The notes below the pieces were generated by a model. The model was given only the letters and a program-made list of their open reading frames with translations, was not told the origin of the DNA and did not search any database. The translations under genes and the position numbers were made by a program. From Chitinophagaceae bacterium (GTDB lineage: Bacteria; Bacteroidota; Bacteroidia; Cytophagales; Cytophagaceae), in contig JAQBNS010000034.1 of assembly GCA_028288405.1 (NCBI GenBank), forward strand, positions 27,221 to 91,220: a DNA stretch of 64,000 nt, read 5' to 3'. Shown here in pieces: positions 8,712 through 22,309 of the stretch (positions are counted from its first letter, which is position 1; the number at the start of each line of letters is the position of its first letter).

Positions 8712-9800
8712 ATGTCGAATAAAAAATTGATTACGATCTGTCTAATCGCAACAGCGGTGGTCGTCTTAATCATTGGCGGCTTCTTATATAGAGAAGACTC
8801 TCTCGTTGTAGTTCCTTTTTCTTCTTCTACCATTGCTCTGGATACTTACCACGAAGAAGGTCCTGTATTTTCTCAAACATCCTGCAAGCACACAGACAAA
8901 GGAATTGTTTTTGACTATACCTTGTCTTCCGCTTTTCCTGAACCTTTTGCTGCCGTCTATTGGGAAGATACCGCTTCTCCGAAGCATCTCTACGATGCCT
9001 CGACTTATGATATGCTGGAAGTGCGCCTGCGCGCTGTCAAAGCGACTCGCATTCCCATTACCTTTAGAGTATCTAAAAATTTGGTGTTTGGTAAAGATAC
9101 CGTGAACATTATACCCTATGTGTTAGTTGTTGATCACACAGGCAGAGACACGACATACAAACTTCGTTTGAGTAATTTCAAAGTGCCTAGCTGGTGGTTG
9201 CGTTTGTATAAAATTCCTGAAACGGATTTTGAAAAAGCTGACCTGGCTCACATCGGGGATTTCGTCATAGGAAGCTGTCAGGCGCTTGGCCCGGATATTC
9301 CGGACACCATGACTATTTCTAATGTACGTTTCGTAGCCTCTAACCGTACTTTAATCATTGTAGTATTCAGCATTTGGGGCGTCTTGCTCGCTGCCGGGCT
9401 ATACATTAATCTGTGGAAGAAAAAACAAATCAGTAGTTTGCAGATCGCTTATACGCCTTTGCCTGTATCTGAAACACAAACAGGCGAGTTTGGGAAAATA
9501 GCAGATTTCATCGCGCAAAATTATCCCAATGCGGAGCTCAGTCTCACGGATGTACAGAACGGCGTAGGCATCAACGGTAAAGCCATTTCCAGACTGATCA
9601 AAGAAAATTTACAGATCTCTTTTACGGATTACCTCAACCAATTGCGCATCACAGAAGTGAAACGTCTATTGAAAGAAACCAAGTTGCCTATTTCCGACAT
9701 CGCTTATAAAGTAGGCTATAACAACATCTCGCATTTCAACAGAGTGTTCAAAGGCATCACCGGTAAGACGCCGAAGGCTTTTAGAGAAGAAGAAGTATAG
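8712..9800 (+). CDS. membrane-anchored AraC-family transcriptional regulator (TM / extracytoplasmic domain / TM / HTH)
   Basis: TM helices near residues 8-27 and about 213-233. C-terminal AraC HTH (ISDIAYKVGYNNISHFNRVFKGITGKTPKAFR). Confidence 0.8.
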   Translation: MSNKKLITICLIATAVVVLIIGGFLYREDSLVVVPFSSSTIALDTYHEEGPVFSQTSCKHTDKGIVFDYTLSSAFPEPFAAVYWEDTASPKHLYDASTYDMLEVRLRAVKATRIPITFRVSKNLVFGKDTVNIIPYVLVVDHTGRDTTYKLRLSNFKVPSWWLRLYKIPETDFEKADLAHIGDFVIGSCQALGPDIPDTMTISNVRFVASNRTLIIVVFSIWGVLLAAGLYINLWKKKQISSLQIAYTPLPVSETQTGEFGKIADFIAQNYPNAELSLTDVQNGVGINGKAISRLIKENLQISFTDYLNQLRITEVKRLLKETKLPISDIAYKVGYNNISHFNRVFKGITGKTPKAFREEEV

Positions 9801-9819
9801 ATATCAATATGTTATTAAC

Positions 9820-9858
9820 AAAAAGAGTCCCGCTAAATAATTAGCGGGACTCTTTTTG
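9820..9858. terminator. bidirectional intrinsic terminator
   Basis: Stem gagtcccgctaa / ttagcgggactc with 4 nt loop, flanked by an A-run and a T-run, between convergent genes. Confidence 0.85.
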
Positions 9859-9877
9859 TTTGTCTTAAATGCTTCGA

Positions 9878-11056
9878 TTAATTCTTATCAATGATAAGTT
9901 TCTCAGAAAACAACAATTGATTATTGGCATCAAATCCCTGAAGGATATACACGCCTTTGTTTACAGCGGATACATCAACGGTTGAGTTTTTTGTACTTTC
10001 ATTCAGTATGTTTTTACCCAATGTATTGTGAAGTTCTACACGTGTTGCAGCAGCATCAACAGTGATCGTTTGATGCGCAGGATTTGGGTAAAAAGCCAAA
10101 TTGCTATTCTGTCCGACACCATTTGATATACCCGTTACTCCTGAATAATCAGTTGCTTTATATATACCGTCACCTAAACCAAGATACATGTTTCCTCCCT
10201 TAGCAGCTATAACCGTTGACATGCTTTCAGACAACCCCGATACAGTCAATGTATTCCAATTGCCCCCTCCAAGCGATCTATATATTCTAACATTATAAGA
10301 AAAATCACCCGTATCAAAAAAGATACCCGTTGCAAAAATATTATCATGATCATCAATGACTACAGACTGCGGAACTATTGAGGGATCAAATCCGGTAGCT
10401 GCTAAACCGAAGTCAGAGTTAGTACCGCTGTTGGCACACTCATAGATACCAGCAGCACCATCTGTTGCCATATACATGGTCGTTCCCACCATTGAGATTA
10501 CGGCATACATACTGTTTGGCAAACCTGTAGTTGTTACTTCAGTCCAAGAACTACCTGCATTGGCAGAAGTATATAACTTAATAGTATAAGTAGAGTTGCC
10601 GCTATCAAAATAAACCGCCGTTACAAAAAGATTATTGTTGTCGTCGACCGATATGGATTGAGGGGCATACGTTGTAGCATAACCCGTTGCAGTCCATGTA
10701 GCACCGGCATCAGTAGATTTGTAAATGCTTGTATTCAGCCCCATAAATAAAACTGATCCATTCACTCCCAAACAAGTACTGACGAAACTGCCATCAGGTG
10801 TTGGAAGTCCGCTCATCGTAACTTCTGCCCAGTTCGCGCCGGCATTTGTAGACTTATACAACTTAGGGGTATAAGTAGGAGTAGGAGTAGCAGTGAAAGC
10901 TACCGTACTTACAAAAACATCGTTATTGTCTGTTATAGCGATACCACTAGGAGTCAATGAGGTATTATAACCGGTAGAAGACAAAGACCAGTTGCTCTGA
11001 GCAAAAGAAAAAAACGGAGCAAGGGCAAGCAATAATAGAATGTAAAGTTTTTTCAT
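9878..11056 (-). CDS. BNR/Asp-box repeat protein with T9SS type-A C-terminal sorting domain
   Basis: Signal peptide. Asp-box-like STNAGANW, STDAGATW and SANAGSSW. C-terminal FYPNPAHQTITV...GVYILQGF...LIIDKN. Confidence 0.75.
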   Translation of the reverse strand: MKKLYILLLLALAPFFSFAQSNWSLSSTGYNTSLTPSGIAITDNNDVFVSTVAFTATPTPTYTPKLYKSTNAGANWAEVTMSGLPTPDGSFVSTCLGVNGSVLFMGLNTSIYKSTDAGATWTATGYATTYAPQSISVDDNNNLFVTAVYFDSGNSTYTIKLYTSANAGSSWTEVTTTGLPNSMYAVISMVGTTMYMATDGAAGIYECANSGTNSDFGLAATGFDPSIVPQSVVIDDHDNIFATGIFFDTGDFSYNVRIYRSLGGGNWNTLTVSGLSESMSTVIAAKGGNMYLGLGDGIYKATDYSGVTGISNGVGQNSNLAFYPNPAHQTITVDAAATRVELHNTLGKNILNESTKNSTVDVSAVNKGVYILQGFDANNQLLFSEKLIIDKN

Positions 11057-11925: not shown

Positions 11926-12582
11926 ATGAAATCAAACTTAATCATCCTTATATATTTATTCCTTTTCTTTAGTTGTAAAAAGAAAGAAGACGATCCTCAG
12001 CCGCCAAAGCCTGACGAAATCACTTACCAGACGGATTTTAGTGATCTTTCCTGGAATACGTACTCGAATACGAGGTATACTTCTTCCTATGAATCCGAAT
12101 CATACAAAATCAGATTAGACACTACCAATTGGATGGCTGATGAATTTGCTCCTTATGTAGATCAACTGGACTATACATACTACATGCAAGTAGACGTAAA
12201 GTTTTCTTTAGACAATGACACTAAACTTGCGCATGCTGGATTCAGCTATAATTATGTTGATACCGCTAACTACTGCATCATGAGCATTTGCACTAACGGA
12301 ACTTTCTATGCTTATCAAAAAACAAACAGTCAGTTTAAAATATTATTTTATAACACTGTATCGAAAGATTTGATAAAAGGATCTGAACAAACCAATACTA
12401 TTGCTCTACGGCAATATGAGAATTCTCAGGAAATTTTTTTTAATGGGGTTTCACAAGGCAACTTGCCTTTTGCAAAGGAACGCGGTTATAGAAAAGTAGG
12501 TCTTTGTGTTCTTGCTGATCAACAACTTTATACACCCTTCAGTACTACATTTGACAACTTTGTAATCAAAAAAATCTATTGA
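11926..12582 (+). CDS. lipoprotein, concanavalin/LamG-like fold suspected (paralog 2)
   Basis: MKSNLIILIYLFLFFSC-KKKEDD. Shares Y(K/Q)TDFS, NY(I/V)D..(H/N)YC and FDN(V/F)xIKKI with the upstream gene. Confidence 0.65.
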   Translation: MKSNLIILIYLFLFFSCKKKEDDPQPPKPDEITYQTDFSDLSWNTYSNTRYTSSYESESYKIRLDTTNWMADEFAPYVDQLDYTYYMQVDVKFSLDNDTKLAHAGFSYNYVDTANYCIMSICTNGTFYAYQKTNSQFKILFYNTVSKDLIKGSEQTNTIALRQYENSQEIFFNGVSQGNLPFAKERGYRKVGLCVLADQQLYTPFSTTFDNFVIKKIY

Positions 12583-13238
12583 CACAGAAAAGTTTTTTTA
12601 TACTGTACTTATTGACTGTATCATTTGTCCTGAGAGGTCAAACAGTGAGTGATTCGCTGACTTCCGCGTCTATCGACAGCGTCATCAATCACATCCGTTC
12701 AGATAAAACAAAATTGATTCTGACAAAAACAGGAGGGCTTATCATAGACTCTGCCCTATTCAAGAAAGTATCTTATACTCCGAACAAGAAAAAAGTTAAA
12801 ATCACTTTTGCAGATTATACAAGCATAACCGTAAAGGCCGATGACTTCTGGGGATTAGTGACTGACTTCGGTCAATGCCAGCGTTTTTACAATGGAGAAA
12901 CGTATATCGTCTGGCATACGAAAGCTCCTTATATCTACAGAGACTACGCCGCTTCTGACCGTAAGATCAAATACTTTTACAGTAAAACATTACTCAGTGA
13001 GGTTATTCCTTTGACGAAAGAAAACATATATGAAATCGCGGATGCGAAAACGATAGAGCAATTACAAGCCTATCTAAAAACACACGATATAGAAAAATCA
13101 AAAGATGGTGGGCCTAACCTACCGGCAGAAGTTCATTTTTTCGAAGATGCAGAATGGTTTACGCCTAGTGATTTCTTTATGTTCCACGCGCAAATAGCCT
13201 GGGCGATCTTGGAGATTCTTATGTGTAAGAATAAATAA
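12579..13238 (+). CDS. hypothetical secreted protein
   Basis: TTG start overlapping the upstream stop by 4 nt. N-terminal hydrophobic signal-like segment. No recognised domain. Confidence 0.45.
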   Translation: MTQKSFFILYLLTVSFVLRGQTVSDSLTSASIDSVINHIRSDKTKLILTKTGGLIIDSALFKKVSYTPNKKKVKITFADYTSITVKADDFWGLVTDFGQCQRFYNGETYIVWHTKAPYIYRDYAASDRKIKYFYSKTLLSEVIPLTKENIYEIADAKTIEQLQAYLKTHDIEKSKDGGPNLPAEVHFFEDAEWFTPSDFFMFHAQIAWAILEILMCKNK

Positions 13239-13240
13239 AA

Positions 13241-13963
13241 TTACCTGTTCTCCGAAATAAAATGCTCTAACGCATTTAACGTAATCTGCTCTTCCAACAA
13301 AGCCTTCGCAAACACCGCTCCCTTTAATCCTGCGTCTTGTAACTTTTTAATATCGTCTAATGATTTGATACCCGTGGCAGCAATAAAGTTGATCTCCGGA
13401 TATTGCTCTATCAATGGTTCATAGCGCGTAATCGCTTTATCTACAGACCAGCCGTGCATCGCGCATTTGATGGTTTTTACCCCTTGCTCAGAAAAATAGT
13501 CGACCACCTGTTCCAGTTCTGTTTCCGCAATTTGTCCGTGTTGACGGTACAATACTTTGCCTTCAATAATATCCAGACTCAAGACAATTTTTGCCGGAGT
13601 AAAGGTCACCATCCAGGAACTAAAAATCTCCTGATTAAACTCCATCACAGAAGCAGCCAGTATGCGGTCTGCGCCATGTTCAAAAGCCAGACGCAGATCC
13701 GCTTCTTTTTGTATGCCTCCTCCGAAATCTACTTTAAGAGAAGTGAAACCTGAAATTTTTTCCAATGCATCCGTATCCACTACTTTACGTAGCTCCAGTC
13801 CTTCCACATCCGTCAGCACGATGCGTTGAATGCCTGCATCCTCCAGTTTCATGGCCCAATCCAGGGGATCATGATTGTAAAGCACCAGGTCATTGGGATT
13901 GTATCCATTGATGCGCACTACTTTTTTATACTTTACCGAAATAGCAGGGATGAGCTCTATCAT
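13241..13963 (-). CDS. HisA-like (beta/alpha)8-barrel protein, divergent (His_biosynth fold), last gene of the trp operon
   Basis: Aligns by eye to HisA (IPAI.., DVEG, GGGI, SLDI, ATGI.. phosphate-binding loops). It is 12 nt downstream of trpA. The N-terminal catalytic Asp position reads Ser (IPAISV). Confidence 0.7.
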   Translation of the reverse strand: MIELIPAISVKYKKVVRINGYNPNDLVLYNHDPLDWAMKLEDAGIQRIVLTDVEGLELRKVVDTDALEKISGFTSLKVDFGGGIQKEADLRLAFEHGADRILAASVMEFNQEIFSSWMVTFTPAKIVLSLDIIEGKVLYRQHGQIAETELEQVVDYFSEQGVKTIKCAMHGWSVDKAITRYEPLIEQYPEINFIAATGIKSLDDIKKLQDAGLKGAVFAKALLEEQITLNALEHFISENR

Positions 13964-13975
13964 GGCTTTAGGGTT

Positions 13976-14770
13976 TTATCCTTGTTTCACAAAAGATACA
14001 AATTCTTTGATGTCTTTTTCCAACAAATGGCTATTTCCTAGCATTTTTATAAAGGCACTACCGATAATAGCGCCGTTGGCATATTTACAAGCTTCAGTAT
14101 ACGATGCATGATCTTTGATGTTGAAACCGATCATCGTAGGATTGTTGAATTTTGCTTTTTTGATGCGTTCGAAATATTCTTTTTGCCCATCCAGATCTTT
14201 CGCTTCATTCCCCGTCGTGCTGGCTGTAGAGACTACGTAAATAAAGCCGGAAGAAGCCTCATCAATGTATTTCAAACGTTCTGTAGATGTTTGTGGCGTC
14301 ACCAAAAACACCATCGATAAATTATTCGCTTCAAATAGTTCCTGGTATTTTTCTTTGTATTCGTCTATTGGCAAATCAGGCAAGATCATTCCATCCACAC
14401 CCAGTTCGCCCAAATCTGCTGCCAGTTTTTCTACACCATATTGTAAGGCCGAATTGATATACCCCATCAACAACACAGGAATGTGAATTTCATCACGCAT
14501 ACCGTGCAACTGCTGAATGATTTTCTTCAACGTGATGCCATTCTGTAATGCCGCATCATTGCTTTCCTGTATCGTAGGTCCATCTGCCAGAGGATCAGAA
14601 AATGGAATCCCGATCTCCACCATGTCCGCTCCCCCGTCCTGCAAGGCTTTCAGGATGGTACGTGTGTCTTCCAATTGAGGATATCCAGCGGTGAAGTAAA
14701 TGTTCAACAGCCCTTCCTTCTTTGTCGCAAAAAGCTGCGTCAGTTTGTTGTTAATATTAGTGCTTGTCAT
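13976..14770 (-). CDS. trpA: tryptophan synthase alpha chain
   Basis: Typical TrpA sequence (YFTAGYP, EIGIPFSDPLADGPTIQ, GFGI-like region) in trp operon context. Confidence 0.95.
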   Translation of the reverse strand: MTSTNINNKLTQLFATKKEGLLNIYFTAGYPQLEDTRTILKALQDGGADMVEIGIPFSDPLADGPTIQESNDAALQNGITLKKIIQQLHGMRDEIHIPVLLMGYINSALQYGVEKLAADLGELGVDGMILPDLPIDEYKEKYQELFEANNLSMVFLVTPQTSTERLKYIDEASSGFIYVVSTASTTGNEAKDLDGQKEYFERIKKAKFNNPTMIGFNIKDHASYTEACKYANGAIIGSAFIKMLGNSHLLEKDIKEFVSFVKQG

Positions 14771-14871: not shown

Positions 14872-16122
14872 CTATTTAGTGAATTCATCTTTACGTGTGA
14901 TGTACGTCATCATGTCTTTATCTCCTCTGCCTGACAAATTAATGACCACCACATCGTCCTTCTTAATCGGCAGATTTTCCAACACAGCAACTGCATGTGC
15001 TGACTCTAAGGCAGGAATAATGCCTTCTGTGCGACTCAACAACATTGCGGCATTGAAAGCTTCACCATCCGTGATGCTATAAAATTTCGCACGACCGGTT
15101 TCAAATAAGTTCGCATGCATTGGTCCAATACCCGGATAATCCAATCCTGCTGAGATGGAATAAGGTTCTGTAATTTGTCCATCTTCGGTTTGCATCAATA
15201 AAGTCCTGGAGCCATGGATAACACCCGGTTTTCCAAGAAAAGTAGTGGCCGCCGAATGTCCTGAATACACCCCTTGTCCCGCAGCTTCTACGGCGATCAG
15301 ATTAACACTTGCTTCATTCAGATAATGATAAAATGCCCCAGCCGCATTACTTCCTCCTCCTACACAAGCGATCACATAATCCGGATTGGGAGAGCCGGTC
15401 TTATCAATCAGTTGATCCTTGATCTCCTCGGAAATAATGGATTGAAAACGTGCCACCAGATCTGGATATGGATGTGGCCCTACAACAGAACCGATGATGT
15501 AATGAGTATCAACAGGATTATTGATCCAATCGCGGATTGCTTCGTTCGTCGCATCTTTCAATGTCTTACTTCCTGAATTAGCAGGACGAACAGTTGCTCC
15601 TAGCATTTTCATACGCTCGACATTGGGTTTTTGACGTTCCATGTCGATCGCTCCCATGTATACAACACACTCCATACCCATCAAGGCACAAACTGTAGCC
15701 GTAGCTACTCCATGCTGACCGGCACCTGTTTCCGCGATGATGCGCGTTTTGCCTAAACGGCGCGCCAATAAAATTTGTCCAATAGTATTGTTGATCTTGT
15801 GTGCACCGGTATGACACAAATCTTCTCGTTTCAGGTAAATGGTACTCTTATATTTTTCTGACAAACGTTTAGCCAAATATAAAGGTGTTGGACGGCCCAC
15901 ATAGTCGCGCAGCAAGTCCTCCATTTCAGCCTTGAAACCTTCTTCCTGTATAATATCCAGGTAACGGTTTCTCAATTCTTCTACATTAGGAACTAACATT
16001 TCAGGGATATATGCACCACCGAAATTTCCGTAAAATCCTTTTTTGTCTACTTGGTAATTCATATACAGGTATGCTCCTTGACCCAACAGGTCTTTTTTTT
16101 CTTCGTGAATACTCATAGCCAT
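14872..16122 (-). CDS. trpB: tryptophan synthase beta chain
   Basis: [18 protein letters not shown] and GGGSNA motifs. ATG at 16122 overlaps the trpF stop by 1 nt (TAATG). An alternative start MNYQVDKKG at 16062 is also plausible. Confidence 0.95.
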
Positions 16123-16763
16123 TAACTCGTTAGTTTTTCTTTAAATTCTTTTACCTTTTCAATATCCTTTAAGCCCGGACTTATTTCGAAGCGACTGTTG
16201 ACATCGATGGCCCAGAGTGGCTTGTCTAATACAAATTCCGGAATGGGTAATTGTTCGATACCGATTCCTCCGCTTAAGAAAAATGGTTTGCTGGAAGGAT
16301 AGTCTTTCAATAAATTCCAGTCAAACAGCCGGCCCGTTCCTCCCCATGAAGCGTCTGCGGTATCGAAAAGAAAATAATCGCAGACTTCTTCGTAACGCTC
16401 CAATACTTTCCATCCTATTGCAGAGCCTACATGCACTACTTTGATCACCTGCAAACCGAAGGTTTTCAGTTCGGCGCATAACTCAGGCGATTCTTCGCCA
16501 TGTAATTGTACTGCTTTTAAATCATAATGCTGTGTGATTTTCTTGATCTCTTGTACACTTTCATTGACAAAGACACCCGTCTTCATGATGCTCGCCGGTA
16601 ATGATGCCAAAACTTTTGCATCCAGCATCTCACCTGCGTAACGCTTGGAAGGACCATAGAATATAAACCCCATGTAATCGGGCAAAAGCTTCGCCAGCTC
16701 GAGAATGTTTTCACTCTCGCGCATGCCGCAGACTTTTAGCTTTATTTCTCTATTATTTTTCAT
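16122..16763 (-). CDS. trpF: phosphoribosylanthranilate isomerase
   Basis: LKVCGM..., QLHG.E and FLSGGI motifs in operon context. Confidence 0.9.
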
Positions 16764-16962: not shown

Positions 16963-17757
16963 TTACTTCAAAGCTTCGTAACGTTTCACAAACTCCGCCA
17001 TCGCTTTCCCTGGATCTTGTTCTTTCATGAAACGCTCTCCCATCAGAAAGCCCTTGAATCCTGCCTTACCGAGGGTGATCAAATCTTCCGGAGCATCTAA
17101 ACCGCTTTCTGAAATTTTGATGTAACGGTTCGGTATTAATTCTGCCAACTCTAATGAATTATTAATGCTGACTTCAAATGTTTTCAAATTACGGTTGTTG
17201 ACTCCAATCACATCCACTTCATCGATCAGGTTGCTTAACAATTCTTCTTTATTATGAACTTCCAACAAAACTTCAAGATCCAATGAGTGCGCAAACTTTG
17301 CCAATCGTTGCACTTCCTCAGGCGTCAGGCAAGCAGCAATCAATAAGATAATATTCGCTCCCCAGGCTTTGGCTTCCAAAATCTGATACTCATCAATCAT
17401 GAAATCTTTGCGTAACAAAGGAATGTTCACCGCTTGGCGTGCCGCTTTCAAATCTTCTTCCGCTCCAAAAAAGAAATCCTTGTCCGTCAATACCGAACAA
17501 GCAGATGCGCCGGCCAGTTCGTAACCTTTCGTCACGATCTCTGGCTTTACTTTATCATTGATGATTCCTTTAGAAGGAGATCCCTTTTTAAATTCAGCAA
17601 TGATGCCTGTTTTATTCAGAGCCGTCAAATGCTGCTTCAGCGAAAGATTGGCCAATCCCGGATGGATCAATTTCTCCAATTGAGCAGTGCTCACTTTCGT
17701 TTTGGCTTCCGCGACTTCTATTTTTTTGCGGTCAATGATTTTATCGAGTACGCTCAT
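16963..17757 (-). CDS. trpC: indole-3-glycerol phosphate synthase
   Basis: IAEFKKGSPSKG, LRKDF and GVNNRNL motifs. Confidence 0.95.
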   Translation of the reverse strand: MSVLDKIIDRKKIEVAEAKTKVSTAQLEKLIHPGLANLSLKQHLTALNKTGIIAEFKKGSPSKGIINDKVKPEIVTKGYELAGASACSVLTDKDFFFGAEEDLKAARQAVNIPLLRKDFMIDEYQILEAKAWGANIILLIAACLTPEEVQRLAKFAHSLDLEVLLEVHNKEELLSNLIDEVDVIGVNNRNLKTFEVSINNSLELAELIPNRYIKISESGLDAPEDLITLGKAGFKGFLMGERFMKEQDPGKAMAEFVKRYEALK

Positions 17758-17759
17758 GA

Positions 17760-18755
17760 TTATGCGTTGTTGTCCATTAATATTTTGAAAGCTTCGTAGG
17801 CTTTACCTGATTGTATCGATTCGCGGGCAATTTCTACGGCATCCAACATGCTTGTTCCCGGTTTGGCGCACACGATAGCCGCGGCGGCATTGGCCAGCGT
17901 GACGTCGTTTTGTGCTTTCGTTCCCTTATTTTGTATGATGTTCAAGAAAATGTGTGCGCTTTCTTCCACGTTGCTACCACTCTTGATTTCATCGTGTACA
18001 AACGTATTCATACCTAAATCCTGCGGTGTATAAATATGTTCTCCCCGATTCGTAATCAGTTTGAACGGCGCTGTCAATGAAATTTCATCGTAGGTATCCA
18101 ATGAATGGGCGATGCAATATCTTTTATCTGTTTCCGCATAAATATAACCGTACAAACGAGCCAACTCCAGACTGAATACACCCACCATCTGTTTTTTCAC
18201 AAAAGCCGGATTAATCATCGGTCCCAGCATGTTGAAGAATGTTTTTACACCAAGTTCCCTGCGAATCGGAGCCACATTTTTCATGGCCGGATGAAACAAT
18301 GGGGCATGCAGGATACAGACTTTTGACCGCTCGATTTGTTTCTTCAGTACATCGATGTCATTGGTAAACTTATAACCCAGAAATTCCATGACATTCGAAG
18401 AGCCTACCGGAGAAGACACGCCATAATTGCCATGCTTGGCCACATATATACCGGCACCCGCAGCTACAAAAGAAACGGTAGTGGAAATATTGAACGTGCT
18501 TTTTCCATCGCCACCTGTTCCGCACAAATCCATCGGATCAAATTCTGCCACCGGCACAGGAATACACAATTCCAGCATCGCATCACGGAAACCTGCCATT
18601 TCATTTACCGTTACACTGCGCATCATGAAAACGGTCATGAATGCTGTCGTTTGAGAAGGATTGATTTCTCCTCTCGCTATGCGGAGCATGGCTGTCTTCG
18701 CATCTGCTCTGCTCAGTGTTTTATGTTCGATCAGTTGTTGTAAAACCTCTTTCAT
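17760..18755 (-). CDS. trpD: anthranilate phosphoribosyltransferase
   Basis: CGTGGDG..TFNIST and KHGN motifs. Confidence 0.95.
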   Translation of the reverse strand: MKEVLQQLIEHKTLSRADAKTAMLRIARGEINPSQTTAFMTVFMMRSVTVNEMAGFRDAMLELCIPVPVAEFDPMDLCGTGGDGKSTFNISTTVSFVAAGAGIYVAKHGNYGVSSPVGSSNVMEFLGYKFTNDIDVLKKQIERSKVCILHAPLFHPAMKNVAPIRRELGVKTFFNMLGPMINPAFVKKQMVGVFSLELARLYGYIYAETDKRYCIAHSLDTYDEISLTAPFKLITNRGEHIYTPQDLGMNTFVHDEIKSGSNVEESAHIFLNIIQNKGTKAQNDVTLANAAAAIVCAKPGTSMLDAVEIARESIQSGKAYEAFKILMDNNA

Positions 18756-18758
18756 GGC

Positions 18759-19349
18759 TTAATGCTTTAACCAGTTTAAGACCATTTGTTCTCCGTGTTC
18801 TGTCAAAATAGATTCCGGATGAAACTGAACGCCTCTTACATCATATGTTTTATGGCGCAAAGCCATGATCTGATTTTTTTCATCCACCGCAGTAATTTCC
18901 AGATCCGATGGAAAATCTTTGTTAGCCACTGCCCAAGAATGGTAGCGCCCGGCTTTGAACGTCGCAGGCAATCCTTCGAAGGTAAGATCAGAGGGGACCG
19001 TCACTTTAATATCTGTGGCGATACCATGGTATACTTTATCCAAATTGATCAGCGTACCACCGAACACTTCACCGATGGCTTGCAGGCCCAGGCATACACC
19101 GAAAATACTTTTTGTCGGCGCATAGGTACGGATCACTTCATGCAGGATGCCTGCTTCCGAAGGAATACCAGGACCAGGTGACAATAAAATTTTATCGTAA
19201 GCGGCAATGTCAGCCAATGGAATTTGGTCGTTGCGGTATACTTCCAGGTTTTTGTAACCCAATCCTTTTATATAATGTACCAGATTGTAGGTAAAAGAAT
19301 CGTAGTTGTCGAAAACCAATATCTTTGTTTTTGCTTTATCTGTGCTCAT
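18759..19349 (-). CDS. trpG: anthranilate synthase component II (glutamine amidotransferase)
   Basis: Class-I GATase motifs GVCLGLQ and FHPES. Confidence 0.9.
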   Translation of the reverse strand: MSTDKAKTKILVFDNYDSFTYNLVHYIKGLGYKNLEVYRNDQIPLADIAAYDKILLSPGPGIPSEAGILHEVIRTYAPTKSIFGVCLGLQAIGEVFGGTLINLDKVYHGIATDIKVTVPSDLTFEGLPATFKAGRYHSWAVANKDFPSDLEITAVDEKNQIMALRHKTYDVRGVQFHPESILTEHGEQMVLNWLKH

Positions 19350-19362
19350 GATTTTGGATCGA

Positions 19363-20775
19363 TTAAATGGTAACAGCCTTTTCGATGGCTTTTTTTACAG
19401 CAGCCAATTTGTTGTGCACTTCCTGCAATTCGCTTTCTCTGACAGAAAGATCCACTACACCCGCACCGGCCTGATAATATAATTGATTGTATTTGCTTAA
19501 AATGGATCGGATCATGATGGCGTGATTGAATTCACCATTGAAACCGATGTATCCGATGGCTCCGCCGTAAAATCCACGGTTGCCTTTTTCATACTGATCA
19601 ATCAGCTGCATAGCTCTGTGTTTCGGAGCGCCGCTCAAAGTCCCTGCAGGGAACGTATCAGCTACTACTTGTATATAGTCTTCCGGATGTTCCAAAATGC
19701 CTTTTACCTTTGACACCAAATGAATCACGTGTGAATAGTACTGTACTTCTTTGAATGTTTCCACTTTTACCTGTTCACCGTGGCGGCTTAAATCATTTCT
19801 CGCCAGATCCACCAACATCACGTGTTCGGAATTTTCTTTGGGATCGTTCAGTAATTCTTTCGCCAGGTCATAATCTTTCACATCGTCACCTGTTCTGCGG
19901 AAAGTACCGGCAATCGGGAAAATGAATGCGGCATCGTCTTTAATCACGATCTGTGCTTCCGGTGAAGAACCGAAAATGCGGAAACTGCCGTAATCGAAAT
20001 AGAATAAATAAGGAGAAGGATTAATAGAACGTAAACTTCTGTACACATTGAAGTCGTCTCCGGCATAGCCGCGCTGAAATCTTCTGGACAAAACAATTTG
20101 GAAGACATCTCCTCTGCGGCAATGTTGTTTGCCTTTATCGATGATGGCCAGATACTCTTCGTCCGTTAGATTGGAGGTTTCTTCTGTAGTTAAAGAGAAA
20201 TGAAACTCAGGAACATTCTGATTTTGTACCAGTGTTTTTATTTTTTCGATCTGAGAAGGACCGGACAATTGATTCTCCAATTGATTTTCAACAATCGTCA
20301 ATTCGTTGTTAAAATGATTGAAGACTAATAAATAGCGGTAAAACAGATAATACACTTCCGGAATTTTGCGGTCGTCGTTTTCAAATGTGGATATCTCCAC
20401 CTGTTCAAAATAACGCACCGTATCATAAGACATGTAGCCAAACAATCCGGAAGTAATGAAAGGAGACGAAGCCTTTGTGGTATCAAAACTCCCAATGAAA
20501 TCAGAAAGAGCTTCCGTCACGGTCTCGCGACTGGCTGTTTGTGTATGTGGTTTTTGTCCGGGTAAAACGGTTTCGATGATTCCGTTTTCTACTTTAAAAG
20601 AAGCCAAGGGTTCGCAACCTATATAAGAATAGATGTCTTGCGTGCCGTGGTAATCCGAACTTTCCAGCAGACAACTGTAGGGGAAGTGGTCTCTCAGTTT
20701 AAGGTATACCGATACCGGTGTCAGCATATCGGCCAATAGTGATTGAGTGGTAGTGTTTATCTTTATCTTTTTCAT
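19363..20775 (-). CDS. trpE: anthranilate synthase component I
   Basis: LLESS near the N-terminus. C-terminal chorismate-binding motifs (GTLSGAPK, RGFYGGAIGY). Confidence 0.95.
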   Translation of the reverse strand: MKKIKINTTTQSLLADMLTPVSVYLKLRDHFPYSCLLESSDYHGTQDIYSYIGCEPLASFKVENGIIETVLPGQKPHTQTASRETVTEALSDFIGSFDTTKASSPFITSGLFGYMSYDTVRYFEQVEISTFENDDRKIPEVYYLFYRYLLVFNHFNNELTIVENQLENQLSGPSQIEKIKTLVQNQNVPEFHFSLTTEETSNLTDEEYLAIIDKGKQHCRRGDVFQIVLSRRFQRGYAGDDFNVYRSLRSINPSPYLFYFDYGSFRIFGSSPEAQIVIKDDAAFIFPIAGTFRRTGDDVKDYDLAKELLNDPKENSEHVMLVDLARNDLSRHGEQVKVETFKEVQYYSHVIHLVSKVKGILEHPEDYIQVVADTFPAGTLSGAPKHRAMQLIDQYEKGNRGFYGGAIGYIGFNGEFNHAIMIRSILSKYNQLYYQAGAGVVDLSVRESELQEVHNKLAAVKKAIEKAVTI

Positions 20776-20796: not shown

Positions 20797-20831
20797 AAGT
20801 AAGGCTTGCTGTGGATCAGCAAGCCTTACTT
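20797..20831 (-). terminator. putative trp attenuator hairpin (15 bp stem, 5 nt loop)
   Basis: On the minus strand AAGUAAGGCUUGCUG-AUCCA-CAGCAAGCCUUACUU is followed by AUUUAAAA. It lies between the WWW leader ORF and the trpE ATG. The U-tract is weak. Confidence 0.5.
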
Positions 20832-20879
20832 TTATATCTTAATGTATACAAATAGAGGTCGTGTGTCCACCAACTGGAT

Positions 20880-20921
20880 TTATGATTCCCACCACCAATA
20901 TTTGTTTACGTTGTTTGTCAT
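20880..20921 (-). CDS. trpL: trp operon leader peptide MTNNVNKYWWWES
   Basis: Hand translation of the minus strand: ATG ACA AAC AAC GTA AAC AAA TAT TGG TGG TGG GAA TCA TAA. Three consecutive Trp codons, 104 nt upstream of the trpE start. Confidence 0.65.
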   Translation of the reverse strand: MTNNVNKYWWWES

Positions 20922-20938
20922 GTGCTTTATTATTTTTT

Positions 20939-20946
20939 CAAAAATA
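20939..20946 (-). promoter_or_regulatory. Bacteroidota -7 promoter motif TATTTTTG for the trp leader
   Basis: The minus strand reads TATTTTTG (TAnnTTTG), 17 nt upstream of the leader ATG. Confidence 0.4.
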
Positions 20947-21022
20947 AGCATTATTTGACCATACATACAACAGCCTGACCGAAAATTTTGCTTTAGAGCA
21001 TGGAGTGCGCTGCTTATTCCGC

Positions 21023-21030
21023 TATCTTTG
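21023..21030 (+). promoter_or_regulatory. Bacteroidota -7 promoter motif TATCTTTG for lysA
   Basis: Exact TAnnTTTG match, 25 nt upstream of ATG 21056. Confidence 0.4.
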
Positions 21031-21055
21031 CACAAATTATTCTTTATTACGCATC

Positions 21056-22309
21056 ATGGAATTAACAAACGGCAGTTACGGCATCCAGAGCATAGCACTG
21101 ACTACTCTGGCAGAAAAGTATCAAACTCCTTTATATGTATATGACGGAGAAAAAATCGTGAATCAATACAAACGACTTAAAAATGCGTTTGATGGTACGC
21201 GTGTAAAGATAAAGTACGCCGCAAAAGCTTTGACCAATCAATCGATACTGACTTTGCTTCAGAAAGCAGGATCAGGAGTAGATGTTGTTTCTATAAATGA
21301 ATTACAACTGGCGCTTCGTGCAGGATTTGCTCCGGCTGATATTATGTTTACTCCCAATTGTGTTGATTTTTCTGAAATAGAAGAAGCCATCACGTTGAAT
21401 GTACATATCAACATCGACAATCTTCCCTTCCTGAAAAAGTTTGGAGAGCAGTATGGATCTTCTGTACCGGTATGCATACGCATTAACCCACACATCGATG
21501 CGGGAGGAAATGAGAAGATCATGACCGGACATCGTGAGTCAAAATTTGGCATTTCGATCGAACAAGAGCAAAATATACTGGACATCGTGGCTCAATACAA
21601 GCTCAACGTCGAAGGTATCCATGTACACAGTGGTTCTGATTTCAAATCAGCAGATGCGTTCGTGAGTGCAGCTGAAATCATGTTCAAGGTGGCGAAAGAT
21701 TATCCTTCACTCTCTTTCATCGACTTTGGAAGTGGATTTAAAGTCGCCTACAAAGAAGGAGATCATGCCACAGACATCGAAGAGCTCGGAAAGAAGATGA
21801 GCAGTGCCTTTAAAGCCTTCTGCGCTGCTTATGGAAGGGAATTAGAGCTTTGGTTTGAGCCCGGAAAGTTCTTAGTAAGCGAATCAGGATTGCTTTTGAC
21901 AACCTGTACAGTGATTAAAGAGACTCCCGCCTGTACTTTCATCGGAGTAAACTCCGGATTGAACCATTTGATCCGTCCGATGATGTACGGAGCATACCAT
22001 TCGATCTTTAATGTGAGCAATCCGACCGGAAAACAGAAAAAATATAACGTTGTAGGATACATTTGCGAAACCGACACCTTCGGGAAAGCCCTAGACATCA
22101 GCGAAGCCAAAGAAGGCGATATTATCGCGCTAAAAAATGCCGGCGCTTATGGATTCAGTATGAGCTCGAATTATAACAGTCGTTTTCGCCCCGCGGAGGT
22201 TTTAATCTTGAATGGAAAAGACTTTTTGATCAGGAAAAGAGAAGTTTTTGACGACCTTTTGAAAAATCAGGTAGAAATTTTTTCAGCCGAGACCAGTTTG
22301 CAAGTTTAG
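21056..22309 (+). CDS. lysA: diaminopimelate decarboxylase
   Basis: Start MELTNGSY...TPLYVYD. Orn/DAP/Arg decarboxylase motifs (KYAAKA PLP-lysine region, GSGF, CETDT). Confidence 0.9.
   Translation: MELTNGSYGIQSIALTTLAEKYQTPLYVYDGEKIVNQYKRLKNAFDGTRVKIKYAAKALTNQSILTLLQKAGSGVDVVSINELQLALRAGFAPADIMFTPNCVDFSEIEEAITLNVHINIDNLPFLKKFGEQYGSSVPVCIRINPHIDAGGNEKIMTGHRESKFGISIEQEQNILDIVAQYKLNVEGIHVHSGSDFKSADAFVSAAEIMFKVAKDYPSLSFIDFGSGFKVAYKEGDHATDIEELGKKMSSAFKAFCAAYGRELELWFEPGKFLVSESGLLLTTCTVIKETPACTFIGVNSGLNHLIRPMMYGAYHSIFNVSNPTGKQKKYNVVGYICETDTFGKALDISEAKEGDIIALKNAGAYGFSMSSNYNSRFRPAEVLILNGKDFLIRKREVFDDLLKNQVEIFSAETSLQV

Follow-up and report, generated by a model that had tools for sequence, protein, structure and literature searches.

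An Asp-less HisA-derived barrel as the last gene of a tryptophan operon in Cytophagaceae

What does a HisA-like barrel that lacks the catalytic aspartate of HisA do directly behind trpA? The question is raised by a gene for a 240-residue protein, hereafter the paralog, at the end of the trp operon in a 64,000-nucleotide stretch of DNA (the window; contig JAQBNS010000034.1 of assembly GCA_028288405.1, positions 27,221 to 91,220) from a Chitinophagaceae bacterium that GTDB places in the Cytophagaceae, order Cytophagales. HisA, PriA, and TrpF are the textbook system for change of function in (β/α)8 barrels. A first-pass annotation of the window proposed that a HisA had been recruited into the trp operon and its active site altered there, giving a neofunctionalized isomerase, a regulatory pseudoenzyme, or a salvage enzyme. 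Here, we report that the paralog is a HisA-derived barrel from a clade of Asp-less paralogs, that both catalytic Asp residues of HisA are lost in it, and that the gene descends from an old hisA duplication within Cytophagales. Our best overall explanation, to which we give a probability of about 0.6, is an old Asp-less HisA duplicate, a repurposed barrel, which was captured as the last cistron of the trp operon. A full-text literature search gave no description of an Asp-less or a trp-linked HisA paralog in Bacteroidota.

Results

Fold and active site of the paralog

Pfam His_biosynth (PF00977) matches residues 4–228 of the paralog with 117 bits (E 8e-34), and the AlphaFold2 model, built from 44 aligned sequences, is a complete (β/α)8 barrel with a predicted local distance difference test score (pLDDT) of 92.7 and a predicted template modeling score (pTM) of 0.91. 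In a Foldseek search against the PDB, the top matches are HisA structures of Salmonella enterica with template modeling (TM) scores of 0.83–0.87, followed by PriA and HisF, and the motifs IPAISV, TDVEG, FGGGI, SLDII, CAMHGWSVD, AATGI..D, and FAKAL are all present in the sequence. The equivalog profiles, on the other hand, leave the protein far outside: it scores 107.4 bits on TIGR00007 (HisA; cut-off 228.95) and 44 bits on TIGR01919 (the bifunctional hisA-trpF of PriA type; cut-off 306), and the Pfam scan gave no match to PF00697, the PRAI/TrpF family, which is found in the operon's own trpF. The earlier statement that a HisA-fold gene lies 12 nt behind trpA is thus confirmed by the open reading frame (ORF) coordinates, Pfam, AlphaFold2, and Foldseek.

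The residue register was taken from HMMER alignment to PDB chains, from MAFFT alignment with canonical Bacteroidota HisA, and from the structure match, and all three agree. Ser9 takes the position that the general-base Asp has at the end of β1, and His170 that of the general-acid Asp in the β6-α6 loop; both catalytic Asp residues are lost in the paralog. In PriA, the corresponding Asp11 and Asp175 are given as catalytic (PMC13055916), and, per their titles, PDB entries 5a5w and 5abt have Asp7 and Asp176 mutated to trap N'-[(5'-phosphoribosyl)formimino]-5-aminoimidazole-4-carboxamide ribonucleotide (ProFAR). At the second site the change is more than a substitution, i.e., “CA---MHGW” of the paralog aligns with “CTDISRDGT” of HisA, a three-residue deletion of “TDI” beside His170. 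What the first-pass annotation had read by eye, a replaced N-terminal Asp in IPAISV, an altered β6 loop in CAMHGWSVD, and a retained Asp in SLDII, was right in register on all points, and proper alignment brings up no hidden Asp. The retained residue is Asp131, the equivalent of HisA Asp129, which is invariant across paralogs and canonical HisA; Asp52 and the DFGGG loop are likewise invariant. Further replacements are Ala104 at S. enterica Gly102, Ala168 at Thr171, and His142 at Trp145, the loop-5 Trp that stacks on ProFAR, a position which is H, D, G, or E in the genus of the window. Where HisA has ASGG and VGKA in its C-terminal phosphate loops, the paralog has AATG and FAKA. Among the phosphate sites, GGG is kept, GGS has become AAS, SGG has become ATG, and GKA has become AKA; since the contacts there are made by backbone atoms, the sequence is a poor guide to binding. 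Ser9 is kept in all close orthologs. Two candidate replacements for the lost chemistry were rejected: His170 as a new catalytic residue, since Tyr is found at the same place in the close ortholog P0010, and Ser9 as a nucleophile, since the clade as a whole has A, S, V, W, T, I, or P there.

The paralog is not the hisA of its genome. A canonical hisB-hisH-hisA-hisF cluster lies on another contig (C114) of the source assembly, which is 88% complete, and the HisA encoded there reads “IPAIDIIDGKCVRL” and scores 248.9 bits on TIGR00007, above the cut-off. That the paralog might be the sole hisA, which the first-pass annotation had kept in view, is thereby answered, and its statement that the operon has a normal trpF also holds, with the catalytic Cys (“KVCGM”) and Asp (“LFDT”) both present.

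An old Asp-less clade in Cytophagales

The relatives of the paralog were grouped in three tiers. The first consists of close orthologs at 68–94% identity (19 clusters among the matches listed, after which the next matches drop to 38%), which come from one genus of uncultured Cytophagaceae metagenome-assembled genomes (MAGs), hereafter the window genus. All seven that were read keep IPAISVKYKKVVR, CAM(H/Y)G, AATG, and FAK(A/S)L, and their residues 1–42 are identical except at positions 4 and 18; in two orthologs (78% and 73% identity) the gene lies 11 nt behind trpA in the layout lysA<->trpEGDCFBA-paralog. Tier 2 is a second HisA-like gene in six further Cytophagaceae genera (as defined by GTDB), including Sporocytophaga, at 38–42% identity; it is directly behind trpA in nine of ten loci, i.e., in all those whose contig extends upstream of the gene. 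The tier-2 proteins have IPAIS and FAKA like the window paralog, but they keep CTDIxxDG, the Trp, and ASGG. Tier 3 comprises second HisA-like genes found in many of the other Cytophagales families. The 12 copies examined are mostly monocistronic, are 33–38% identical to the window paralog, and carry the hallmark F(S/A)SW...SYGR; none has Asp at the β1 end, where they read IPS(I/L)(S/A/T)I, or in one case IPAISV, and none has trpA within 1.5 kb.

A large-database search with one tier-3 protein gave 998 matches at E ≤ 1e-30. In the 118 relatives that were listed and scorable, the place of the β1-end Asp is held by A (65), S (36), V (7), W (5), T (3), or I (2), and by D in none. On TIGR00007 the tier-2 and tier-3 proteins reach 208 and 204 bits, respectively, both under the cut-off; public records call the tier-3 relatives ProFAR isomerase (e.g., at the Joint Genome Institute, JGI) or “HisA/HisF-related TIM barrel protein” (the NCBI Prokaryotic Genome Annotation Pipeline, PGAP, for Fulvivirga). 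In 387 genomes of other Bacteroidia orders no match to the paralog profile of at least 290 bits was found, a threshold that more divergent relatives would escape, and among the genomes searched the Asp-less clade is restricted to Cytophagales. A profile search of 1.84 billion cluster representatives had about 20 Asp-less proteins among its best 150 matches, the remainder being canonical HisA. Several cluster representatives of about 490 residues (P0242, P0243, P0257, P0283, and others) match the HisA profile twice, with the canonical Asp, and are probably HisA-HisF or tandem barrel fusions.

In a maximum-likelihood tree of 60 sequences rooted on HisF, the Asp-less paralogs form one clade (support 100/99) nested among Bacteroidota HisA, and inside it the trp-linked proteins form one clade of their own (100/99); a quick tree of 74 rows has both clades in the same topology. 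The event order given in the first-pass annotation, recruitment of a HisA into the trp operon and only then alteration of its active site, is therefore wrong, because the loss of the Asp is common to a Cytophagales-wide, mostly stand-alone clade that is usually found near lysA.

A burst of change in the window lineage

The stem of the window genus measures 1.27 substitutions per site in the 60-sequence tree, against 0.03–0.3 for the other internal branches. It is divided by P0271, a metagenomic lineage with the locus layout lysA<->trpEGDCFBA-paralog whose protein is 42% identical to the window paralog, has Pro at the Asp place, and is without the loop-6 motif and without the Trp; in the 74-row quick tree, P0271 is sister to the window genus (Shimodaira–Hasegawa-like approximate likelihood ratio test, SH-aLRT, 96) and cuts the stem into 0.35 and 0.68. 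Among the tier-2 genera the paralog is 64–73% identical and TrpA 61–72%, whereas between the window genus and the tier-2 genera the values are 38–43% and 56–62%, respectively; the acceleration is specific to the window lineage because only there does the paralog drop below TrpA in identity. Lost in this burst were the TDxxxDG motif of loop 6 along with the general-acid Asp, the SGG phosphate loop, and the stacking Trp. Within the genus, the pairwise ratio of nonsynonymous to synonymous change (dN/dS) of the paralog is 0.03–0.05, the same as that of trpA, values which are rough as dS is saturated (>1) in most pairs, and the same genomes show a lower dN for the paralog than for trpF. Rapid change over the whole length of the protein in the sub-lineage of the window was thus followed by purifying selection as strong as that on TrpA.

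lysA synteny and the origin of the trp linkage

The paralog was found in seven of 16 Cytophagaceae genera, there always directly behind trpA, and the trpA-paralog spacers are very short (12–27 nt in several genera). In the window the trpA stop is at 13976 and the ATG of the paralog at 13963, which leaves a 12-nt gap, and a scan of this spacer (13964–13975) found no terminator-like site. Because of the short gap and the lack of such a site, we infer that the paralog is co-transcribed with the trp genes, as the last cistron, without a promoter of its own, of an operon that a Trp leader controls. The leader RNA upstream of trpE would put the whole operon, presumably including the paralog, under tryptophan control.

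Of ten loci in the other families, three have lysA as the direct divergent neighbor of the paralog and another two have it no more than 4 kb away. In Fulvivirga-type genomes, a hypothetical gene or a two-component system separates lysA from the paralog. A complete trpEGDCFBA between lysA and the paralog, in the orientation of the paralog, is seen only in Cytophagaceae, where lysA<->trpEGDCFBA occurs both with and without the paralog at its end. Around the stand-alone relatives lysA was the only recurrent neighbor found, whereas TonB receptors, two-component systems, and a tRNA-binding protein differ between loci; an Rfam scan of seven such loci gave no riboswitch or leader RNA, and no amino-acid-rich leader peptide was seen by eye in 330 nt upstream. 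The ancestral place of the paralog family is near lysA. As conserved synteny with lysA accounts for the trp linkage with no need of a shared function, the linkage probably arose via a rearrangement beside an older gene, i.e., as an accident of gene order. We infer that the arrangement of lysA and the paralog is old, that the trp operon came in between later, and that the paralog was then lost in nine of the 16 Cytophagaceae genera.

The lysA-paralog interval differs in content by family: it may be empty or hold a hypothetical gene, a histidine kinase plus a response regulator, or the trp operon in full (L116 3229–6729, L117 2279–6732, and L118 707–6729; 13241–22309 in the window), and the interval behaves like a recurrent insertion site. 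In one Sporocytophaga MAG (L023 1710–2934), lysA matches as two pieces in different frames, which suggests a frameshift or an assembly error.

Persistence without the histidine and tryptophan pathways

In three genomes of genus g26, 98–99% complete and two of them single-contig, the paralog is the only full-length His_biosynth protein, so that there is neither HisA nor HisF, and no match was found in the three to HisB (imidazoleglycerol-phosphate dehydratase), HisD (histidinol dehydrogenase), or TrpA. These organisms are probably auxotrophs for both His and Trp. Their paralog reads “IPAIAV” and, of the stand-alone relatives in the 60-row tree, comes closest to the trp-linked clade (94/90), a placement not recovered in the 74-row quick tree. 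Since the paralog is kept in genomes without the his and trp markers tested, the job of the family would need neither pathway, and the gene content indicates that its function lies outside the steps of histidine and tryptophan synthesis. The three genomes (G086, G101, and G069) belong to family f11, and their monocistronic paralog is seen at 9462–10184 of locus L055.

A different situation was noted in G065 (family f6; loci L103, L114, and L115; 97% complete), in which hisB, hisD, and trpA are present and canonical hisA and hisF were not found. The Asp-less paralog is the sole full-length His_biosynth protein there, and hisB is not followed by hisH-A-F; the case may reflect a gap in the assembly or be genuinely anomalous.

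Discussion

With the general-base Asp gone, the known mechanism predicts that the clade does no Amadori rearrangement of the HisA/PriA type, and the paralog is very probably neither a ProFAR isomerase nor a phosphoribosylanthranilate (PRA) isomerase. The His_biosynth fold, the best matches to HisA structures, and the name ProFAR isomerase that JGI gives to relatives would all suit a second working ProFAR isomerase (a HisA isozyme) or a PriA-like bifunctional HisA/TrpF enzyme; however, with Ser9 and His170 in place of the two catalytic Asp, with scores far under the TIGR00007 and TIGR01919 cut-offs, with canonical hisA and trpF already in the genome, and with a family that survives where the tested his markers give no match, such an enzyme is highly improbable. 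Of the functions proposed in the first-pass annotation, the isomerase of PriA/TrpF type is thus unlikely, both catalytic Asp being gone, and the neofunctionalized enzyme and the pseudoenzyme are the ones left to weigh. That the gene is a decaying, functionless relic carried along by read-through from trpA is scarcely credible. The long stem branch, the substitutions spread over the whole protein, and the loss of the gene in many sister genera could be taken that way, but no ortholog seen has a broken reading frame, comparison of orthologs gives a dN/dS of 0.03–0.05 (dS being saturated), trpF of the same genomes has the higher dN, and the model reaches a pLDDT of 92.7.

Among the remaining readings, a new catalytic activity is plausible though somewhat short of an even chance, and a non-catalytic binder is a tentative proposal. 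For the latter, the barrel would be kept as a regulator or scaffold that binds a metabolite or a partner protein, in the way of HisZ with HisG; this pseudoenzyme is possible rather than probable. The paralog lacks the two catalytic Asp, the Trp that stacks on ProFAR in HisA, and the glycines of the phosphate loop, the residue at the base position is free to vary across the family, and many Asp-less cluster representatives sit on long branches, while the fold is nonetheless confidently predicted and under purifying selection. Yet no partner gene co-occurs consistently except lysA and the trp genes, no domain was added, and Asp131, Asp52, and the DFGGG loop are invariant, which is what an enzyme would also keep.

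The laboratory-evolved HisA variants of Nasvall 2012 and Newton 2017 reportedly gained TrpF activity, and it may be asked whether the paralog is a neofunctionalized enzyme of tryptophan metabolism that acts on or protects a labile intermediate such as PRA, 1-(2-carboxyphenylamino)-1-deoxyribulose 5-phosphate (CdRP), or indole-glycerol phosphate, or that salvages a related phosphoribosyl-amine, its chemistry being done by residues other than the two lost Asp. We regard this as unlikely. In its favor, the gene closes an operon that is headed by a Trp leader, it has stayed behind trpA in seven genera and two further metagenomic lineages, it is under strong purifying selection with a nearly invariant loop 1, and its Ala104 stands at Gly102, G102A being among the substitutions of the lab-evolved HisA structures that are its best PDB matches (per entry titles). 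Moreover, the residues at Trp145 and Thr171 are lost, as are their equivalents, Trp145 and Thr170, in the TrpF-only PriA paralog SubTrpF2 (PMC13055916). Against it, the trp linkage is explained by the older lysA synteny, nine of 16 Cytophagaceae genera lost the paralog and keep the operon, and the family persists in genomes where TrpA was not found; no acid or base is conserved at the catalytic positions (His or Tyr at 170, Ser or Pro at 9), and of the two phosphate sites the C-terminal one, which PRA uses in PriA, is the more eroded.

The capture of a repurposed duplicate, which we prefer, would have run as follows. An old hisA duplication in Cytophagales would have given an Asp-less paralog near lysA; in Cytophagaceae the trp operon would have come between lysA and the paralog, making the latter the last cistron; in the sub-lineage of the window a burst would have stripped the remaining catalytic features, after which strong constraint set in. 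Today, a stable (β/α)8 barrel would be made when tryptophan is scarce, and it would either act as a non-catalytic binder of a small phosphorylated ligand or of a partner protein, or do a chemistry other than aldose-ketose isomerization. It is also conceivable, though doubtful, that after its capture the barrel gained a role in tryptophan starvation, either by binding or stabilizing a labile pathway intermediate or by modulating a Trp enzyme.

Several points weigh against this explanation. The loss of isomerase activity is read from residues, and a different base could in principle substitute. The short spacers and the retention behind trpA in seven genera could reflect a real tie to tryptophan metabolism, and the renewed constraint is measured by dN/dS values that saturation of dS makes rough. 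Furthermore, in a test that covered positions conserved in tiers 2 and 3, the lineage-fixed changes are not enriched on the catalytic face (nine of 38 against 18 of 65 positions, Fisher p = 0.82); such an even spread fits relaxed selection followed by new constraint and points to no new active site.

Compared with HisA (EC 5.3.1.16; TIGR00007; S. enterica 5ahe/5a5w and Thermotoga maritima 1qo2), the paralog has the same fold and equal length, keeps the DFGGG loop, the Asp129 equivalent, and the loop-1 Arg, and branches within Bacteroidota HisA; it differs in the loss of Asp7, Asp176, Trp145, and Thr171, in Ala at Gly102, in the changed SGG and GKA loops, and in lying outside a his cluster. With the stand-alone Cytophagales paralogs (e.g., of Fulvivirga) it shares the clade, the missing β1 Asp, Ala at Gly102, F(S/A)SW, and a nearby lysA. 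Those proteins, at 33–38% identity, keep the TDxxxDG loop, the stacking Trp, SGG, and mostly GKA and are monocistronic, whereas the window paralog has lost all these features and is the last trp gene. The PriA sub-families of Actinomycetota (SubHisA, SubTrpF/SubTrpF2, PriB, and AdeK) are likewise natural homologs that shifted in function beside a second isomerase, but they come from independent duplications in a different phylum, keep Asp11 and Asp175, and remain isomerases; the window paralog keeps neither Asp. The lab-evolved S. enterica HisA variants (dup13-15, D10G, G102A, Q24L; 5ab3, 5ac6) are its best PDB matches by sequence and structure and have Ala102 in common with it. They gained a three-residue duplication in loop 1, of which the paralog has none, and the active variants (e.g., 5ac6) keep Asp7 and Asp176, D7N being present only in some crystal constructs (e.g., 5ab3).

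The natural and laboratory variants of HisA and PriA compared here thus keep both catalytic aspartates, unlike the window paralog. What Cytophagales offer is a natural, order-wide paralog clade without the general base that is retained even in genomes without the tested his and trp markers, and in it a sub-lineage that lost the general acid as well after joining the trp operon and then came back under strong purifying selection. A ligand or a reaction, if found, would show what a HisA barrel does without its catalytic machinery and would correct the annotation of relatives as ProFAR isomerase in public records. If the role in tryptophan starvation were true, an enzyme scaffold would have been stripped of catalysis and re-selected for a new job within one bacterial family. 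The locus is also a caution for the prediction of function from gene order, as the best account of the trp linkage is that an operon was set down next to a gene already there.

Other genes of the locus and of the genome

The features of the locus are collected in Table 1.

Table 1. Coordinates of the paralog, its key codons, and the surrounding features in the window
Feature	Position	Strand	Evidence or remark
HisA-derived paralog, 240 aa, (β/α)8 barrel	13241–13963	-	ORF, Pfam, and predicted structure
His170 (codon 170, CAC)	13454–13456	-	Replaces general-acid Asp176 (S. enterica; PriA D175), β6-α6 loop
Asp131 (codon 131, GAT)	13571–13573	-	Equals HisA Asp129, β5; retained
Ser9 (codon 9, TCG)	13937–13939	-	Replaces HisA general-base Asp (S. 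enterica D7, T. maritima D8, PriA D11), C-terminal end of β1
Spacer trpA-paralog, 12 nt	13964–13975	-	Without terminator-like site
trpA	13976–14770	-	TIGR00262, 207 bits
trpB	14872–16122	-	
trpF (PRA isomerase)	16122–16763	-	Catalytic Cys and Asp present; best NCBIfam equivalog 153 bits, cut-off 215
trpC	16963–17757	-	
trpD	17760–18755	-	
trpG	18759–19349	-	
trpE	19363–20775	-	
Bacteroid-trp leader RNA, upstream of trpE	20818–20944	-	RF01692, 53 bits, gathering score 49
lysA (diaminopimelate decarboxylase), divergent from trpE	21005–22309	+	TIGR01048, 396 bits

On the other side of the paralog, a convergent gene for a 219-residue protein (12579–13238, +) has its stop only 2 nt from that of the paralog (13238–13241), which leaves no room for a terminator between the two genes. 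The TrpF of the operon falls below every NCBIfam PRA-isomerase equivalog cut-off despite its catalytic residues (Table 1), and it is the fastest-evolving trp protein within the window genus (dN 0.22–0.26). Elsewhere in the source assembly, on contig C36 (L003 888–2238), a second HisH-like/HisF-like pair lies among genes of sugar-modification type and resembles an amidotransfer module of the WbuZ/HisF2 type; it is unrelated to the trpA-adjacent paralog.

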